DNA from: Eledone cirrhosa | Lineage: Eukaryota | Reading direction: 5' to 3' | DNA: 64,000 nt | Assembly (NCBI GenBank): GCA_964016885.1 | Contig: OZ024743.1 | Coordinates: 201,004,001-201,068,000, forward strand | In this document: positions 12,537 to 53,185 of the stretch, one piece after another | Position numbering within the stretch: the stretch's first letter is position 1 | Layout of the letters: each line of letters starts with the position of its first letter | Position numbers and translations under genes: made by a program | Notes under the pieces: model-generated | Database searches by the model: none | What the model was told of the DNA's origin: nothing | The model's input: the letters and a program-made list of their open reading frames with translations, nothing else

Positions 12537-12985
12537 GAAGGCGCATGGCTTAGTGGTTAGAGCATTGGGCTTGCAATCGAAAGGTTGTGAGTTCAATTCT
12601 CGGACTGGGTGATGTGTTGTTTCCTTGAGCAAGACACTATATTTCACATTGCTCCAGTTTACTCAGCTGTAGAAATGAGATGATAGGACTGGGGTCCCTA
12701 TCATTACACTGCAAAGTGGTCGTGGAAATGCCACGGCAAAAAAGCACCCAGCCCACACTGTAAAGTGGACGTGTAGGCAAAAAAGCACCCCGCACTCACT
12801 GTAAATGAGGTTGGTGTTAGGAAGGGCATCCAGCTGTAGAAATCAAGCCAGAATCAGTTCCCATATGAGCAAGACAAGGTTAGCCGACTGGACACTGCCC
12901 ACAACAGTACAACCTGTCTAACCCATGCTAGCATGGAAGAACGGACATAAAACGGTGATGATGATGATGATGATGATGATGATGA
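12537..12985 (+). mobile_element. tRNA-head / CORE-like / RTE-tail SINE (family S1)
   Basis: A-box tggcttagtggtt, B-box gagttcaattc, 'ccttgagcaagacac' CORE-like segment, 3' part shared with the RTE 3'UTR (ggaagggcatccagctgtagaaa), (GAT)n tail. Confidence 0.85.
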
Positions 12986-14464: not shown

Positions 14465-15177
14465 AATAGTAATAATAAATTTGAAGACTAAAATTCAAAG
14501 AGGGCTCGATAAGGATAAATATATATCAAATATATAAGAACCGTAGAGTAAATATTTATTAAAATAACATATTAAAGTTTAAGCAAAGAATCACTGCTCT
14601 CACCCTTAACGGGATCTTCTGAAACTAAAAAAAATCAATCTGTGAACGCAGAAGTAAATATTTCGAAAAACGTTGCAGCTGACGGAAGACAGGAAGACGA
14701 TACTTTGGTTCGTGAAGACGTTCCCTGGCAAAGAACGGAAAAAAACGAATATAATGCATCATTATTTGGAGCGGTGAAAACAATTAAACGCAAAGACAAA
14801 ACCACGTTTATGGTATAAATGAAGTCGTAGACTAATATTCTATTAGGTGGTTCATGGAGACATTCCCTGGCAATGACGTATTATCTTCTTTTTTTCCGTT
14901 CATTGCCAGGGAACGTTTCCACGAACCAAAGTATCATCTTCCTGTCTTCCATCGGTTGCAATGTTTTTCGAAATATTTACTTTTGCGTTCACAGATTGAT
15001 TTTTTTTAGTTTCAGAAGATCCCGTTAAGGGTGAGAGCAGCGGTTCTTTGCTTAAACTTTAATATGTTATTTTAATAAATATTTGCTCTACGAAGAGCTG
15101 TTAATGAAGATCCTGTTAATGTTGAAAGCAGTGATTCTTTGCTTACACTTTAATCTGTTATTTTAATAAATAAATAA

Positions 15178-17254: not shown

Positions 17255-17504
17255 TATTGTTATACTTTGGGAGGGTCCTGTTGCCAATAAGAAACACACG
17301 CACCAGTTGCTTTCACTTCAATTTATTATAAATTTCCGGTTGGTTGGTTGGTTTCACAACCGGACGTTTGTTCATATATTGTCAAAGTTCTTTCGTCGCA
17401 CACTCTGTGACCTCTTCAGTGACTGGGGATTCTTTTCTTTGTTTTGTGCATCTCCTTTGTTCTGTCCTACGCCATTTTGGATGGCGTAGGACAGAACAAA
17501 GGAG
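17255..17504 (-). mobile_element. Family-A PLE pLTR fragment with 5' hairpin
   Basis: Matches 22316-22575; 24-bp arms 17452-17475 / 17481-17504; hammerhead at 17381-17423 (-). Confidence 0.85.
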
Positions 17505-20521: not shown

Positions 20522-22130
20522 CCTTACATCAACAAAGCATCTAACCACCCCAAATCTACACTTAACTCTATAGTGAGGAGCATCTTACACAGAATCTCGA
20601 GGCTGTCTGCCAACGAGGACCTCTTCTTACCAAACTGCCGACTACTACAACAAAGCAGTGGCCGAATCAGGATATAGCAGCAAGATTTCGTACATCCAGG
20701 ACGTCAGCTACACTAGCCCCCCCCCCCCCCTCCCATAGGACCAGTGTAATGGCATGTCGCACCAATAACTACCGTGGCAGTGGAAATATACAGGTCGAAC
20801 TAGTAGTGTGGCAAACCTTGGCCAGCATCATAACAGCAAAGGTGGTAAGCCAGGGGGACCCCTACACCAGTGCCAACTTAGTTCGGGCAACATAATTAAC
20901 AGCAGCCTACTAGAAAAATTCCCTGTGTACGGGCTTAATAATGGTGACGGTATCTAACCAACACCTACCAGCAGGCATAGGGTAAACCAGAGCAGCCCAG
21001 CAGGGGGTAGGTTAGCACATGGGGCTAATACGAATGGAGCGCGCAATAGGCAGCAGCCCAACCGCTATGGTAGAAACACCCACCAGGGCTTAAACGACCA
21101 CACCAGCCCAACTACGACATGGAAACGCCGTTGTAATGTCATATGGTTCCTTCCCCCCTACTCTAGAAGTATAGCCTCTAACATACCTAGAATCTTCTTC
21201 GAGGCCTTAAAGAGGAACTTCCCACCTAACCACAGGTACCACCAGATCATCAACAAGAATAACGTCAAGATATCTTATTCTACTACACCTAACTTAGCCG
21301 ACCTCATACCACTGAGCAACCACAGTAAGCTCACTGGAATAAAACCAGCCCGTAATGCCAACGTTGGTGAACCCGGCTACCCAGCTGACCTTAACAATTC
21401 CGTCGCCCATAATAGTAGCAGTAATAGTAACCAGGACATTAAGCATAGTATTAGCAGTAACATCTACAATAGCAACAATATAGAGACTAATCGCAGCGCT
21501 AGTAGGGGGGCTGGCGACCAGGTTAGATACCATAGCAACGATAACAAAGGCTGTAGAAGGTGCCGTAATATGAGTAATAGTAATAGCACCATTTCGTGGG
21601 ACTATAACTACAATAATGCCAACCGCAACAACAATGGTGATGGCGACATTGATAGTAGTAAGGTTAACAGCAGACCTCACCACTCTAGAAATAGCAACAT
21701 AAAACACTGCAATTGCCGAAACCCCAACAACTGTCCGCTCCAAGGCTACTGCTTGATTAGAAATGTAATCTATAAATGCACAGTGACGAGTTAAAATAGC
21801 ACTAGGTCATACATAGGCGCCACTTCTGGGGAGTTCAAGACTAGATTTAGAACACATTTCCACTCCTTCAGAAATTGGATGCTATGATTCTCTACCTCAC
21901 CTCGCTAATTATACTACTCAATTAACCGACGCTAACATTAGCTACACTACTCAATGGGAACTTGTTAACCAAGCAACTCCATATAATTTCAGGAAAAATT
22001 GGCAGCTCTGCTTAATGGAGTTATACTATATAGTAAAGCACCCCAGGAACTCATTAATAGTCGGGCTGAAAAGATTATCAATTGCGGCCACCGACTGCAG
22101 CAATCCTTCTACAGATGGTCACCTGAACAT
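20521..22130 (+). pseudogene. Decayed Penelope-like element (thumb, linker, GIY-YIG), Naiad-like
   Basis: YINKASNHPKSTLNSIVRSILHRISRLS..SGY; VIWFLPPYS..FPPNHRYHQIINKNNVKISYS; CNCRNPNNCPLQGYCLIRNVIYKC; YIGATSGEFKTRF; QLCLMELYYI..LINSRAE..CGH; stops and frameshifts; (TA)n flanks. Confidence 0.85.
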
Positions 22131-22261: not shown

Positions 22262-22474
22262 CGTTTCTGAATTTGTTTAGCAAGATTCTTTATCTGAAAT
22301 CGTGTGTTGAAACCGATATTGTTATACTTTGGGAGGGTCATGTTGCCAATAAGAAACACACGCACCAGTTGCTTTCACTTCAATTTAATTTAATATATAT
22401 TTATAAATTTACAAATTTATAAATTTCTGGTTGGTTGGTTGGTTCCACAACCAGATAGTTGTTTATATATATAT

Positions 22475-22519
22475 AGTCATAGTTCTTTCGTCACACACTC
22501 TGTGACCTCTTCAGTGACT
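22475..22519 (-). ncRNA. Minimal type I hammerhead ribozyme (family A)
   Basis: Reverse complement of 26648-26692. Confidence 0.85.
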
Positions 22520-22815
22520 GGGGATTTCTTTCTTCGTTTCTGTGCCTTTCCTTTCTTCTATCCTACGCCATTTTGTTTGTGTGTGGGTTGCGTGCTCAGT
22601 TTGCGCATGCGCCACATCCGGGTGTCTGTGTGTGTTTGTGTTCATTTTTCTATTTTTCTATTTATATTTGTTTGTTTATTTATTTATTTATTGTTGGTTG
22701 GTTGTTTGTTCTATGTGTGTGTGTGTTTTCATTTTGTCTTGTGTGTGTTTTCATTTTGTGTGTGTTTTCAATTGTAAGTTGTTTATATATGTGTGTGTGT
22801 GTTTTCATTTTGTCC

Positions 22816-25134
22816 TTAATTGTAAGTTGTGATGTTGCTGTTCCACTCATATTTTCTATTTAATTTTGGTTTTAATTCTTTTATGCTTACTGCCTCTGTA
22901 ATTTGCCTAAACATTGCGTCTTTCTTGTGTGTGGATTCTATTTTTATTTCTATGCTCTCTAATTTACCCCTGTGTTCTATCTTAGCATGTTGGTAGAGCA
23001 CAGATGATTCTTTACTATCTTGGAGGTCTCGCCAGTGTTCATTTATTCGTTCCCCTATACTACGAGCTGTCTCACCTATGTACACTATATTTTTGTTTCT
23101 ACATTGTCCCTCAGTACATCTTATGCTATATACTACATTTCTAGTTTTACAGTTAATATGGGGGCTTATTTTACAGGTTATACATTTCTTATCTATACAT
23201 GAGGGTCTTTGGAACGGGTATGTCTTGCTAATAAGTGTTTTTACGGAGGTACCAGGTCTTTCTACTATCTTAATATTGAGATTATGTTTCTTTAGGGCCC
23301 TTCTAAATTTGTAGGCTAGTTCGCCTCTAGGGGTTGTATTGATGAACATTACACTCTGGTATTTATTGCTATCATACCATGAGTTTATTCTATTGGCCTT
23401 GTTCTTAGTTCTTTCTATTCTATTCCAAAATTTGCTCCTATACAAGGGGCAGGTCCCATTTATGTCATTATTTACCATTTTTTCCCATTTGGTTCTGGCT
23501 CCTTTATACACTCTGATTCTATCTCTCTGATTGTAGCCAGAGAACTGCATACGGTGGATGAAGTGTTGTATGTGTCTCTCTAGTTCTTCGGGGTTGCACA
23601 TGCGGGACACATTTCTCATCACCCGTATCAAATCCGCAATCAGTATGTTGATTTTGGTATGGTCCGAAATGGCCGAGTTTCGGTGGATCAGATGTTTGGA
23701 AGTCATGGGTTTGGCATAATGGGAATGGAGGATTTGTTTTTGGTTGTTAATAGTATCTAACCAGAGCTCTGTGTCTAGTACAGGTAATCGATGGTTGGGG
23801 TGTCTACTTGGGTAGTCTATAGTAACTCTAATGCTCTGGTGGATGGAGTTTGCTATTTGCTGGATGCTTTCCATTGTGTTTTTCTCAGGTTCCTGACTGT
23901 TCTTTAGTGGGGGTGTCTTAACTACGATGTTTATATCATCTACGTAGCGGGAGTACATTATCAGGGTTAATCTGTCTTCTAATTGTTCTTTAAGTTTTTG
24001 TTTAAGTCTACTGTCCCACCATACCATGAACAAGTTAGCTATGTCGCCTGCAATGCTAACACCAATGGCTGCTCCTTCCTCTTGGGCATATGTTTTACCA
24101 TTAAATTTGAACATATGTTCCTTAAGGGTTAATTTTATGCTGGCCCCTACCGCATGTGCAATCATTTTCTTCAGTTCATCGTGGTTTTCGGGTGTCCGTA
24201 TGGCTCTGGTCCACCCGTTCCATCTATCTGTGTGGGTTTTCTTGGCCATTGAGGTAATGGTAGGTGGTCTGCCTCTTGCTGGTCTTGTAGGGCACAGGTT
24301 GCTAAGGTCATAAGTGTCTAGGTAACTATTACTATGGGTAAGCTTAAGTAGAAGTCCCAGCTCACTGGTATCAATCCCACGGAACTCAACCTTGCTCTCG
24401 CTGATCATTTCGACGCATTTCTCCACAGCAAAATCCACGTCAATAGATGGATACAGGGACACAACATCCATACTGCCTATTATGCAGTTTGTTAGGTCCC
24501 CAGATCGGTTACCCGCGTCGATTCTGCTGAGGAGGTCCTCCGTGCTGTCACACACATCTGGGGACATCTCAATGATGGGGCGTATGATCAGGGAGAGGAA
24601 GTAGGACAGTCTGTAGTTACTAGCAATGTTAGCCCCACAGACTGGCCGTGTTGGTGGTCCCGCGACAGGGTCCCAGCCCGTTTTATGGTCTTTTCGAAGC
24701 CCATACAACGCCGGCACGTCATTGTTCCAGGCCTGGAAGTTGTTGGCAGTCCTTTTGTTGGGCTGCATTATATTTGTCCACATCACCATATGGGCATTGA
24801 GGGTTTTTTCTCTATCCTCATGCTCCTGTGGTGTTACCTCTCTTGTGTTAGTGATGTGGGGTTGCATTGCCTGGATGTAGTTTGGCAGGCTGTCAACCGA
24901 CATTCTGCCAGACTTGTCTGTTGGAAAGCATGCTATCTCTCCATTACGCGAGCGCTGCATGAGCTTACGCAAGCCATTTGCAGATTCTTCTCCCAGTTGC
25001 TGGGCCTCTATTCTATTATGCTTCTTGCTATACTGTTCTATAATATTTCTAAGTTCGGATTTAGCTATACTAAATTGTGCTTCTGTTTGTTCATCGACCT
25101 GCGACGGCAACTGCGTGCGTTTGTTAAATGGCAA
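22816..25134 (-). CDS. PLE polyprotein: reverse transcriptase + GIY-YIG endonuclease (N-terminally truncated)
   Basis: TDKSG, LYGLRKDHK, RPVC, SMDVVSLYPSI, GAAIG, RYVDD, LPVLD, Cys linker, VVYSIRC..YIGET.R.IGERINEH. The frame stays open upstream of the TTG 'start' to the inversion junction at about 25220. Confidence 0.95.
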   Translation of the reverse strand: MPFNKRTQLPSQVDEQTEAQFSIAKSELRNIIEQYSKKHNRIEAQQLGEESANGLRKLMQRSRNGEIACFPTDKSGRMSVDSLPNYIQAMQPHITNTREVTPQEHEDREKTLNAHMVMWTNIMQPNKRTANNFQAWNNDVPALYGLRKDHKTGWDPVAGPPTRPVCGANIASNYRLSYFLSLIIRPIIEMSPDVCDSTEDLLSRIDAGNRSGDLTNCIIGSMDVVSLYPSIDVDFAVEKCVEMISESKVEFRGIDTSELGLLLKLTHSNSYLDTYDLSNLCPTRPARGRPPTITSMAKKTHTDRWNGWTRAIRTPENHDELKKMIAHAVGASIKLTLKEHMFKFNGKTYAQEEGAAIGVSIAGDIANLFMVWWDSRLKQKLKEQLEDRLTLIMYSRYVDDINIVVKTPPLKNSQEPEKNTMESIQQIANSIHQSIRVTIDYPSRHPNHRLPVLDTELWLDTINNQKQILHSHYAKPMTSKHLIHRNSAISDHTKINILIADLIRVMRNVSRMCNPEELERHIQHFIHRMQFSGYNQRDRIRVYKGARTKWEKMVNNDINGTCPLYRSKFWNRIERTKNKANRINSWYDSNKYQSVMFINTTPRGELAYKFRRALKKHNLNIKIVERPGTSVKTLISKTYPFQRPSCIDKKCITCKISPHINCKTRNVVYSIRCTEGQCRNKNIVYIGETARSIGERINEHWRDLQDSKESSVLYQHAKIEHRGKLESIEIKIESTHKKDAMFRQITEAVSIKELKPKLNRKYEWNSNITTYN

Positions 25135-26351
25135 AGTCGTGGCGTGGACTCGTCGTAGGTCGAATGATTTATCGGAGGGGTTATAAAACGGAGAGTTCCA
25201 GGCTGCTGCTTTATGTGTCTAAAGACACTGCTGCTTTATGTGTAGTTAAGACACCCCCACTAAAGAACAGTCAGGAACCTGAGAAAAACACAATGGAAAG
25301 CATCCAGCAAATAGCAAACTCCATCCACCAGAGCATTAGAGTTACTATAGACTACCCAAGTAGACACCCCAACCATCGATTACCTGTACTAGACACAGAG
25401 CTCTGGTTAGATACTATTAACAACCAAAAACAAATCCTCCATTCCCATTATGCCAAACCCATGACTTCCAAACATCTGATCCACCGAAACTCGGCCATTT
25501 CGGACCATACCAAAATCAACATACTGATTGCGGATTTGATACGGGTGATGAGAAATGTGTCCCGCATGTGCAACCCCGAAGAACTAGAGAGACACATACA
25601 ACACTTCATCCACCGTATGCAGTTCTCTGGCTACAATCAGAGAGATAGAATCAGAGTGTATAAAGGAGCCAGAACCAAATGGGAAAAAATGGTAAATAAT
25701 GACATAAATGGGACCTGCCCCTTGTATAGGAGCAAATTTTGGAATAGAATAGAAAGAACTAAGAACAAGGCCAATAGAATAAACTCATGGTATGATAGCA
25801 ATAAATACCAGAGTGTAATGTTCATCAATACAACCCCTAGAGGCGAACTAGCCTACAAATTTAGAAGGGCCCTAAAGAAACATAATCTCAATATTAAGAT
25901 AGTAGAAAGACCTGGTACCTCCGTAAAAACACTTATTAGCAAGACATACCCGTTCCAAAGACCCTCATGTATAGATAAGAAATGTATAACCTGTAAAATA
26001 AGCCCCCATATTAACTGTAAAACTAGAAATGTAGTATATAGCATAAGATGTACTGAGGGACAATGTAGAAACAAAAATATAGTGTACATAGGTGAGACAG
26101 CTCGTAGTATAGGGGAACGAATAAATGAACACTGGCGAGACCTCCAAGATAGTAAAGAATCATCTGTGCTCTACCAACATGCTAAGATAGAACACAGGGG
26201 TAAATTAGAGAGCATAGAAATAAAAATAGAATCCACACACAAGAAAGACGCAATGTTTAGGCAAATTACAGAGGCAGTAAGCATAAAAGAATTAAAACCA
26301 AAATTAAATAGAAAATATGAGTGGAACAGCAACATCACAACTTACAATTAA
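25128..26351 (+). CDS. Chimeric ORF: antisense-derived N-terminus fused in frame to PLE thumb + GIY-YIG
   Basis: Residues from VVKTPP onward are identical to the C-terminal part of the 772-aa ORF; expression unknown. Confidence 0.55.
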   Translation: MAKSWRGLVVGRMIYRRGYKTESSRLLLYVSKDTAALCVVKTPPLKNSQEPEKNTMESIQQIANSIHQSIRVTIDYPSRHPNHRLPVLDTELWLDTINNQKQILHSHYAKPMTSKHLIHRNSAISDHTKINILIADLIRVMRNVSRMCNPEELERHIQHFIHRMQFSGYNQRDRIRVYKGARTKWEKMVNNDINGTCPLYRSKFWNRIERTKNKANRINSWYDSNKYQSVMFINTTPRGELAYKFRRALKKHNLNIKIVERPGTSVKTLISKTYPFQRPSCIDKKCITCKISPHINCKTRNVVYSIRCTEGQCRNKNIVYIGETARSIGERINEHWRDLQDSKESSVLYQHAKIEHRGKLESIEIKIESTHKKDAMFRQITEAVSIKELKPKLNRKYEWNSNITTYN

Positions 26352-26647
26352 GGACAAAATGAAAACACACACACACATATATAAACAACTTACAATTGAA
26401 AACACACACAAAATGAAAACACACACAAGACAAAATGAAAACACACACACACATAGAACAAACAACCAACCAACAATAAATAAATAAATAAACAAACAAA
26501 TATAAATAGAAAAATAGAAAAATGAACACAAACACACACAGACACCCGGATGTGGCGCATGCGCAAACTGAGCACGCAACCCACACACAAACAAAATGGC
26601 GTAGGATAGAAGAAAGGAAAGGCACAGAAACGAAGAAAGAAATCCCC

Positions 26648-26692
26648 AGTCACTGAAGAGGTCACAGAGTGTGTGACGAAAGAACTATGACT
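26648..26692 (+). ncRNA. Minimal type I hammerhead ribozyme (family A)
   Basis: AGTCA CTGAAGA G-GTCACA gagtg TGTGAC GAAA GAAC TA|TGACT: 5-bp stem I, 6-bp stem II, vestigial stem III, CUA site. Confidence 0.85.
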
Positions 26693-26843
26693 ATATATAT
26701 ATAAACAACTATCTGGTTGTGGAACCAACCAACCAACCAGAAATTTATAAATTTGTAAATTTATAAATATATATTAAATTAAATTGAAGTGAAAGCAACT
26801 GGTGCGTGTGTTTCTTATTGGCAACATGACCCTCCCAAAGTAT

Positions 26844-26883
<40 letters not shown>

Positions 26884-30750: not shown

Positions 30751-30843
<93 letters not shown>

Positions 30844-30859
30844 TAAAATAACAGATTAA

Positions 30860-30910
30860 AGTTTAAGCAAAGAATCGCTGCTTTCACCCTTAACGGGATC
30901 TTCTGAAACT
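30860..30910 (-). ncRNA. Family-B hammerhead-like fold (U4A core variant)
   Basis: Reverse complement of 31806-31856. Confidence 0.65.
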
Positions 30911-31805
30911 AACAAAGTCAATCTGTAAACGCAGAACTGGATATTTCAAAAAACGTTGCAACCAGAGGAAGACAGGAAGACGATACTTTGGTTCGTGGTA
31001 ACGTTCCCTGGCAAAGAACGGTAAAAAACGAATAATACGTCATTAATAGGAGCGGTGAAAAACAATTACGCGCAAAGACAGAACCACGTTTATGGTATAA
31101 AAGAGGTCGTAGACTAATGTTCTCTTAGGTGGTGCATAGAGACGTTCTCTGGCAATGAACGAAAAAACGGAGATAATAAGTCATATGTGGAGCGTGGAGA
31201 ACAATAGCACGCAAAGACAAAATCACGTAAATGGTAAGCAGAAATCGTAGACTAAAATTCTAACTAGGAGACCAAATGAATCTCCGCTACAGAGTTAAGA
31301 ACAAAGTAAATAAATACAATACAGAAGTAATAGAAACAAATAAATACATACACGCAAACAGATACGTACATACACAAGCATACGCAAAACCTTACCATAG
31401 GTATACAAAACCACCAATAGTTTCAAGCAGCGTCTTTACATGGTCTCCTAGTTAGAATTTTAGTCTACGACTTCTGCTTACCATTTACGTGATTTTGTCT
31501 TTGCGTGCTATTGTTCTCCACGCTCCACATATGACTTATTATCTTCGTTTTTTCGTTCATTGCCAGAGAACGTCTCTATGCACCACCTAAGAGAACATTA
31601 GTCTACGACCTCTTATATACCATAAACGTGGTTCTGTCTTTGCACGTAATTGTTTTTCACCGCTCCTATTAATGACGTATTATTCGTTTTTTTCCGGTTC
31701 TTTGCCAGCGAACGTTACCACGAACCAAAGTATCGTCTTCCTGTCTTCCTCCGGTTGCAACGTTTTTTGAAATATCCAGTTCTGCGTTTACAGATTGACT
31801 TTGTT

Positions 31806-31856
31806 AGTTTCAGAAGATCCCGTTAAGGGTGAAAGCAGCGATTCTTTGCTTAAACT
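31806..31856 (+). ncRNA. Family-B hammerhead-like fold (U4A core variant)
   Basis: AGTTT CAGAAGA TCCC gttaa GGGT GAA AGCAG cgattct TTGCT T|AAACT; all three stems form; CUU site. Confidence 0.65.
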
Positions 31857-31962
31857 TTAATCTGTTATTTTAATAAATATTTGCTCTACGGTTCTTATAT
31901 ATTTGATATATATTTTCCTTATCGAGCCCTCTTTGGATTTTAGTCTTCAATTTTATTATTAT

Positions 31963-31998
<36 letters not shown>

Positions 31999-47828: not shown

Positions 47829-47882
47829 TGACTTCTACATGGCTAGAACTGTTTCATTCAAAAGAAATCATCAGGAATGCCA
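47829..47882 (-). ncRNA. Type I hammerhead ribozyme (family F)
   Basis: TGGCATTC CTGATGA TTTC tttt GAAT GAA ACA gttctagcca TGT A|GAAGTCA; GUA site; related 3' half at about 4885-4930 (+). Confidence 0.65.
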
Positions 47883-50524: not shown

Positions 50525-50532
<8 letters not shown>

Positions 50533-50690
50533 TAAAATAACAGATAACAGATTAAAGTTTAAGCAAAGAATCGCTGCGTTCACCCTTAATGGGATCTTCT
50601 GAAACTCTAGGGTTCTTATATATTTGATATATATTTATCCTTATCGAGCCTTCTTTGGATATTAGTCTTCAAATTTATTATTACTATATA
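50525..50690. mobile_element. Short family-B PLE-like fragment (inverted arm + tail)
   Basis: Hammerhead-like 50556-50606 (-) joined directly to the family-B tail. Confidence 0.75.
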
Positions 50691-51883: not shown

Positions 51884-52250
51884 CTGTGTGCATGTGTGTA
51901 TGTATCATCATCATTCATCATTTCATTTTACGTCCTATTTTCCTTGCTTGCAAGGGTGGGACGGGAACTGATTCTGGCTTGATTTCTACAGCTGGATGCC
52001 CTTCCTAACACCAACCTCATTTACAGTGAGTGCTGGGTGCTTTTTTGCCGTGGCACCTCACCGACCACTTTGCAGTGGAATGATTTGGACCCCAGTCCCT
52101 ATCATCTCATTTCTACAGCTGAGTAAACTGGAGTAATGTGAAATAAAGTCTCTTGCTCAAGGAAACAACACATCACCCGGTCTGAGAATTGAACTCACAC
52201 CCTTTCGATTGCAAGGCCAATGCTCTAACCACTAAGCTATGTGCCTCCAT
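51455..52250 (-). mobile_element. Two S1 SINEs
   Basis: 51455-51778 and 51905-52250, homologous to 42622-42955. Confidence 0.88.
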
Positions 52251-52473: not shown

Positions 52474-52509
<36 letters not shown>

Positions 52510-52516
<7 letters not shown>

Positions 52517-53185
52517 TAAAATAACAGATTAAAGTTTAAGCAAAGAATCGCTGCTTTCACCCTTAACGGGATCTTCTGAAACTAACAAAGTCAATCTGTA
52601 AACGCAGAAGTGAATATTTAAAAAACGTTGCAACCGGAGGAAGACAGGAAGACGATACTTGCTCTACGGTTCTTATATATTTGATATATATCTATCTATC
52701 TAAGGCGGGTAAAATTCCCGAGATCCATGGACGAGTTCTCTCCAGCGGTCTCTGTCCCTCATTATCGCTGCCATGTCCTGCGTCTCCAACAGACCAGTGT
52801 CTGTCCTTAGGGCATCAACATACGTTAACCTTGGTCTTCCTCTTCCAGTGTGTCCATGTAGGGGCTCCCACAGGAGCACTGAGTGCAATGTCAAAGAGCA
52901 AAGCCTGGGCGGCGTGCCACAGCTTGAGATCGGTGTGGAAGTCGGACCTTCATAAAGACCTGAAAATCCGCCTCTTCATTGCTGTAGTGGAGTCTGTGCT
53001 GCTGTATGGGTCTAAGACTTGGACACTGACCAAGAAACTCACTCAGATGGTGGATGGGTGCTACACGAGAATGCTGAGGATGGCTCTGAACATGCTCACC
53101 GACATCCAGAGTTGATATATATATTTGATATATATTTATCCTTATCGAGCCCTCTTTGGATTTTAGTCTTCAAATTTATTATTAT

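Follow-up and report, generated by a model that had tools for sequence, protein, structure and literature searches.

A fixed U4A core substitution in the type I hammerhead motif of a high-copy Hydra-clade Penelope-like element of Eledone cirrhosa

The motif and its copies in the window

Direct examination of the window (the whole 64,000-nt stretch of Eledone cirrhosa DNA analyzed here) located a hammerhead-like motif at 31790-31865 (+). It is a type I hammerhead, and the element that ends with it is a young Penelope-like retroelement of the Hydra clade (RT + GIY-YIG ORF). The parts of the motif, the insertion that carries it and the other copies in the window are as follows.

31790..31798, +: distal stem I helix, 5′ strand, 9 bp (ACAGATTGA); upstream of the putative transcription start
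31799..31805, +: stem I bulge CTTTGTT, with two subfamily-variable sites
31806..31810, +: stem I 5′ strand AGTTT; 31806 is the putative capped transcription start and a hot spot of 5′ junctions with an extra G
31811..31817, +: core box CAGAAGA, with A4 at 31812 in place of the conserved U4
31818..31830, +: stem II, U.U (31818/31830) closing three C-G pairs (CCC/GGG), loop GUUAA
31831..31851, +: G12-A15.1, stem III (5 bp AGCAG/TTGCT, 7-nt loop, G15.2-C16.2), U16.1 and U17
31852..31865, +: stem I 3′ strand AAACT (31852-56) and distal helix 3′ strand
31866..31967, +: 3′ terminus, either short (near 31880) or extended by a tail of ~85 nt ending in (TA)n, with two putative RT start sites (tail mechanism after PMC11167929)
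31442..31967, +: 5′-truncated Hydra-clade Penelope copy (3′ UTR, hammerhead, tail), 96% identical to a stretch of the same genome, L031
30836..31414, -: second, inverted copy belonging to the 31442..31967 insertion; its A4 hammerhead occupies 30860-30910
14465..15172, strand unassigned: older inverted-pair insertion, A4 + A14G in both arms, with a third, incomplete copy at 15106-15172
50525..50687, -: short copy (A4 + A15.1C) that begins at stem I and has an inverted tail attached
52509..52660, -: 5′-truncated copy with an intact A4 hammerhead

All the parts that the sequence-only reading had named (three stems, core CAGAAGA, stem I AGTTT/AAACT, U.U with CCC/GGG, AGCAG/TTGCT and the CUU site) are present, and the distal helix pairs ACAGATTGA (31790-98) with TTAATCTGT (31857-65). 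The helices surround the core in the type I order, both the descriptor and the model built from relatives (see below) spanning the whole motif. Measured against C3 U4 G5 A6 N7 G8 A9, the box departs at position 4 only, the six other positions agreeing with it. G12 A13 A14, A15.1-U16.1 and H17 are all in place (GAAA at 31831-34, U16.1 at 31850, U17 of the CUU site at 31851, the would-be cut falling between 31851 and 31852), with these features broken in three of the six window copies.

The bare CAGAAGA 7-mer occurs in the window at chance frequency (8 seen, 6.6 expected), and a three-stem descriptor left free at position 4 gives 9 matches in the window and 0 in 20 window shuffles. An Rfam scan of the window returned no hammerhead family match up to E 1, canonical motifs included, so that its silence on the A4 motif is not caused by U4A. 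The expectation that standard searches would miss the motif is borne out by CUGANGA descriptors, which do miss it.

Six full copies had been claimed for the window. A4 is indeed present in all six; since 14576/15008 and 30860/31806 are inverted pairs, they represent only four insertions, and the descriptor finds the rest of the core intact in only three of the six copies. A14G is also present in copies 14576 and 15008, while copy 50556 has A15.1C, lacks the distal 5′ strand and begins at stem I. The 30836..31967 insertion is a 5′-truncated inverted pair in (TA)n, with one arm short-ended and the other bearing an 85-nt tail; inverted 5′-truncated pairs are the usual Penelope layout (PMC8557442). 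The 3′ UTR of the element additionally contains an internal duplication of ~138 nt (31454-31573 vs 31592-31715, 76-78% identical).

The host element

The element was defined from 15 stretches of the same genome lying between paired motifs, and is in full ~3.3 kb long with a single ORF. In one of these stretches (L031), 197 nt separate the motif from the ATG that follows it, and a second motif stands at the 3′ end. The ORF (examined in L031, L038 and L079, with motifs compared by eye to passages of File S4 of PMC8557442) encodes an RT with a C-terminal GIY-YIG and no CCHH. It carries SDKTG (DKT), LRWRA, CNCRNRADC (CxCX5C), CDLC (CxxC) and CKH (CxH); the RWK motif reads RWR, a replacement of K by R that is also seen in Hydra-1_Crog. 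A Pfam search with the ORF gave nothing useful. The (TA)n insertion, the pLTR, the tail and the inverted truncated copies characteristic of the clade are all found, the one departure being that the motif homologous to its canonical pLTR hammerhead carries U4A. By its motifs, the element classes as a Hydra-clade Penelope. By visual inspection of the 150 best ORF matches (best candidates only), about 21 have an open 713-codon frame. A MITE or other DNA transposon with fixed-length terminal inverted repeats was ruled out, as the inverted arms differ in length from copy to copy and represent the truncated ends of an RT element of 3.3 kb.

Other features of the window include another Penelope-like insertion at 22316-26851, with 1,610-nt inverted arms and an open 800-aa RT/GIY-YIG frame (22819-25218, -). 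Its canonical-core CUA/CUU hammerheads lie at 22514 and 26653, with others at 17419, 54835 and 55205. A fragment of a second Hydra-like family (20525-22100, +) has a frame with a long Asn/Ser-rich insert; N-rich inserts are known from rotifer Penelopes (PMC3846280). Weak tRNA-like Rfam matches, just above the gathering score, at 12544-12607 and 52182-52239 are possibly SINE heads, and positions 1 to about 2000 are taken up by a long array that repeats every 9 nt and is strongly skewed in G/T. Elsewhere in the genome, retrozyme-like tandem arrays of ~310 bp and ~480 bp carry canonical hammerheads (G000:C1:5388688-5392688 and 5541124-5546354).

A4 is fixed throughout the family

A pattern with the stem I and stem II context fixed matched A4 at 22,116 places in the same genome and C, G or U at 240, that is, A4 in 98.9% of 22,356 copies. 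Among the first 100 of the 240 exceptions the bases are divided almost equally (C 31, G 34, U 35), which is the pattern of later decay; at ~0.4%, U4 stands at the level of later mutation. The genome-wide consensus thus proved to be A4 and not CTGA, in agreement with the proposal that A4 was in the propagating master. Moreover, A4 was present in 26 of 26 hammerheads found beside ORF matches in stretches L076-L105, and a pattern anchored downstream of the motif counted 43,839 element ends.

A looser pattern gave 27,881 matches, with 5 CTGA among the first 100. These CTGA matches, considered as a candidate U4 subfamily, were rejected because each is a fold-back junction with position 4 in its middle. 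Such a junction, centred exactly on that position, recurs (G000:C1:4182319-4182353, L019/L020 and others); it makes CTGAAGA on one strand and inflates counts of canonical cores. Contigs from four sequencing runs listed no change at position 4; those under the two other organism labels numbered just 3 and 5 and were near-identical, for which reason this was not taken as cross-species conservation.

Relatives and the polarity of the change

An ORF alignment that included 37 relatives, out of 120 listed, led to 77 metagenome loci (from the best 80 of 302 matches), 42 of which contained 45 distinct hammerheads. Position 4 is U in 44 of these, C in one and A in none, and no A4 was found in the relatives' loci with a descriptor allowing one core mismatch either. 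As relatives keep U4 and none has A4, we take A4 to be the derived state of this family. The relatives have C15.2-G16.2 in 43 cases, U.U in 17, A7 in 12 and U17 in 5; U.U and A7 are commonplace in the Hydra clade, and G15.2-C16.2 with a CUU site and a longer stem III are further departures of the present family from it. Lone natural core variants were also encountered in the neighborhood of related elements, namely U4C, C3U (with its partner base unchanged) and A13U (L117:2167; L132, - strand, 2542; L144:1635). The canonical CUU/CUA hammerhead family of the window was tried as a sister outgroup and ruled out, its 800-aa ORF giving no match to the Hydra profile.

Of 20 relatives' hammerheads whose distance to the ORF match was measured, 17 precede it by 159-222 nt and the other three by 333-392 nt, so that the motif, 197 nt before the ATG in L031, occupies the homologous place. 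Scoring used a relatives' model built from 39 of the 45, six being dropped (near-duplicates, one over-long motif, the U4C motif and one off-position motif). Under this model the window A4 copies score 14.9 bits, with an E of 0.076, whereas natural U4 copies reach 23.7-24.1 bits (E about 4e-5 to 5e-5). Two-sided changes were seen in 10 of 11 stem pairs among the relatives, whose motifs had been picked for pairing, and in none within the element's own family. The designation as a hammerhead is upheld by descent, through homologous position and the relatives' model. Other families of the same genome hold ~61,000 canonical CTGAWGAT...TGAAAS motifs (control 298).

These data bear on the suspicion that the resemblance to a hammerhead is due to chance, or A4 to a mutation shared locally. 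The three-stem fold is not the MFE structure (z -0.6), the A4 copies reach an E of only 0.076 and Rfam is silent, as such a reading would have it. Against it stand the position shared with the relatives, the empty shuffles, the far better scores of natural U4 copies under the same model, and the genome-wide counts of 22,116 to 240. This explanation is by now largely refuted, and we regard it as highly improbable.

5′ junctions suggest a capped start at stem I

The sequence AGTTTCAGAAGATCCC is preceded by G in 1,887 matches, 97 of the first 100 being, by eye, junctions to foreign or inverted sequence, and by A or C in 1,595 matches together, of which ~59 of 100 are junctions by the same visual classing. 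The resulting estimate is ~1,830 junctions with G vs ~940 with A + C, in AT-rich targets. The inverted partner could template roughly a fifth of the extra-G cases. Untemplated G from copying of the cap is established for retroelements. In ~1,800 copies an additional G thus stands precisely where stem I begins, which points to a capped transcription start there, at 31806; these junctions are a new observation of this study. The last bases of the bulge together with stem I read TTAGTT, and we take TTAGTT/TCAGTT at the start of stem I to resemble an initiator. A loose initiator-like pattern precedes 17 of the 45 relatives' hammerheads (a count made without a control).

Given a start at 31806, the downstream copy alone would be able to form the distal helix; the short copies would have been made from RNA uncut at the hammerhead. 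The distal helix with its CTTTGTT bulge, part of the sequence-only reading, is present and 9 bp long, and on this start site it would have no counterpart in the 5′ copy. More generally, our analysis suggests that insertion ends alone may map a transcription start and put a hammerhead at a capped 5′ end.

A canonical-core family represented in the window at 47833-47877 (L185), with ~17,000 ends, is laid out in the same way, with a short end, a tail and TA targets. It too has many 5′ junctions at the start of stem I (roughly a third of 100).

Conservation of the fold

In a sample of 139 copies, some of them chosen for their core or for being non-A4, subfamily-level changes number 0 in helices or core vs 9 of 54 unpaired upstream sites variable; conservation of the tail is roughly on a par with that of the fold. 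The contigs from sequencing runs show changes of only 2-7%, several of them at CpG. The lack of subfamily change fits selection on the fold.

The possibility that a dead ribozyme was retained by selection as a structure recognized by the RT finds a basis in the putative RT start sites, which 3′ ends place beyond the cut site at distances of 29 and about 115 nt, and in variable sites 1905 and 1915, which flank the distal helix strand while 1906-1914 are invariant at the subfamily level. It is at odds with the missing compensatory change within the family, with the conservation of the tail, and with the Poseidon element PAc, whose 5′ truncations to +20 of the ORF, removing the CUGANGA box, were still active (PMC11167929). 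The putative transcription start, with which the motif overlaps, and the youth of the family account for the conservation just as well, which leaves the earlier suggestion of a motif kept as an RT recognition structure without specific support; we consider it improbable.

Is the A4 hammerhead active?

Most likely, in our assessment, the A4 hammerhead is slow or dead, since published CUGA mutants are weak and unrescued and Penelope insertion in vitro has no need of cleavage. In a type III construct, single and double mutants of the CUGA region all had low activity, the C3-G8 swap excepted, and second mutations did not rescue CUGA mutants (PMC9901934), while U4 has been linked to the A6-N7 phosphate (PMC3088659). 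Insertion of PAc in vitro was unaffected by hammerhead catalytic mutants, uncut RNA being the main substrate (PMC11167929), and Naiads flourish without canonical hammerheads (PMC8557442). A comparison of titles and abstract starts, figures not being searchable, found no report of a natural U4A hammerhead, and no U4A cleavage rate was found in the portions of the literature covered.

The predicted penalty of the three-stem fold is about 4.0 kcal/mol (3.97), within the range of the 45 relatives (median 5.0); A4 adds only 0.3 kcal/mol to it (3.97 vs 3.67 with U4). On the other hand, A4 permits a competing 5-bp helix over G12-A15, predicted with p 0.1-0.4 in three of four contexts and 0 in one, as against ≤0.02 for U4. 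CUU is a poor cleavage triplet, and together with a possible A14-U17 pair (predicted p 0.3-0.5) it may represent a further handicap to cleavage. A CUU site can be cut (PMC6908138).

Junctions at the cut site were considered as an indicator of cleavage in vivo. They are rare in the A4 family (847 matches, with 34 of 100 being junctions, or about 290 of 43,800 ends). The canonical-core family proved equally poor in them (about half of 179, or about 90 of 17,400 ends, 17,399 exactly), so that their scarcity is uninformative on U4A and was rejected as a test.

A slow but working U4A hammerhead, rescued by contact between the bulge and loop II in the 3′ copy or by the protein of the element, has several points in its favor. 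The remaining core bases and three stems are intact, the fold has undergone no subfamily change and is no costlier than that of relatives, and G15.2-C16.2 preserves the pair. A natural U4C viroid variant is still functional in vivo and other core variants keep low activity (PMC3088659), and one Penelope hammerhead, that of PAc, cleaves only with its protein (PMC11167929). The unrescued CUGA mutants of the type III construct (PMC9901934), the absence of A4 from all 45 relatives, the CUU site and the predicted competing helix speak against it, and we consider it unlikely. A more specific variant would have the hammerhead work only in the downstream copy (where distal helix and bulge are available) or with protein, the capped upstream copy staying uncut and the 3′ end being trimmed without decapping the mRNA; to this we would give quite a low probability. 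The proposal of an active natural core variant has published CUGA mutagenesis arguing against it. Overall, the motif is built like, and descends from, a Penelope type I hammerhead but departs from it at U4, and we would not file it as an active hammerhead.

A model for the element

The reading we prefer, with a probability of roughly 60%, is that of an A4-fixed type I hammerhead of a high-copy element, likely slow or dead, the element likely spreading from uncut RNA. Transcription would start, capped, at the first stem I base (31806). RT would start internally, 75 or 160 nt downstream of the start base (or else at the corresponding sites of the 3′ copy), and would copy through the uncut hammerhead. 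The motif would persist through the youth of the family and through the place of its bases, which overlap the transcription start and are followed closely by the sites where RT begins. More speculatively, loss of cleavage may have been tolerated or favored, since a cut at +46 would leave the only mRNA without its cap.

With copies numbering in the tens of thousands, open ORFs and a core change that is both fixed and uncompensated, this family offers a ready natural comparison with the canonical-core families of the same genome. If the A4 hammerhead is dead, it would demonstrate in vivo that amplification can dispense with cleavage; if active, hammerhead core rules and search descriptors would have to change.

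Comparison with known systems

The closest known system is the Hydra clade of Penelope elements (Craig et al. 2021, PMC8557442), whose authors call the role of Penelope hammerheads unclear. The present element shares with the clade, as described there, the C-terminal GIY-YIG, DKT, RW(R), the CxCX5C linker and CxxC/CxH, as well as (TA)n targets, inverted 5′-truncated pairs, a tail and a U.U + A7 hammerhead near the 3′ end. In contrast, ctga is present in 28 of the 28 Hydra rows listed in File S2, where the present family has A4. It further differs in G15.2-C16.2 and CUU (C-G and GUH in the clade), a longer, non-palindromic stem III and a length of ~3.3 kb vs <3 kb.

The Penelope hammerheads of Cervera and de la Pena (2014, PMC4209133) are likewise type I motifs in the pLTR with an extra base after A9, and include a family-level core variant (U3-A8); activity in vitro is low. 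However, U3-A8 is a compensatory swap, whereas U4A has no partner change, and stem III here is of the monomer type. Natural core substitutions, including the viroid U4C, and tolerance of U10.1-U11.1 were described by Perreault et al. (2011, PMC3088659); each of these is rare and isolated, unlike A4, fixed in >22,000 copies, and U4A was found neither in the passages of that paper that were covered nor in the text of its 11 supplements. Finally, Anolis Poseidon PAc (Frangieh et al. 2024, PMC11167929) resembles the present element in its internal RT start at two sites, optional tail, AT-rich targets and uncut RNA as template, the difference being that its hammerhead is canonical, protein-assisted and overlaps the ORF start, while here a variant core lies 197 nt before the ATG.
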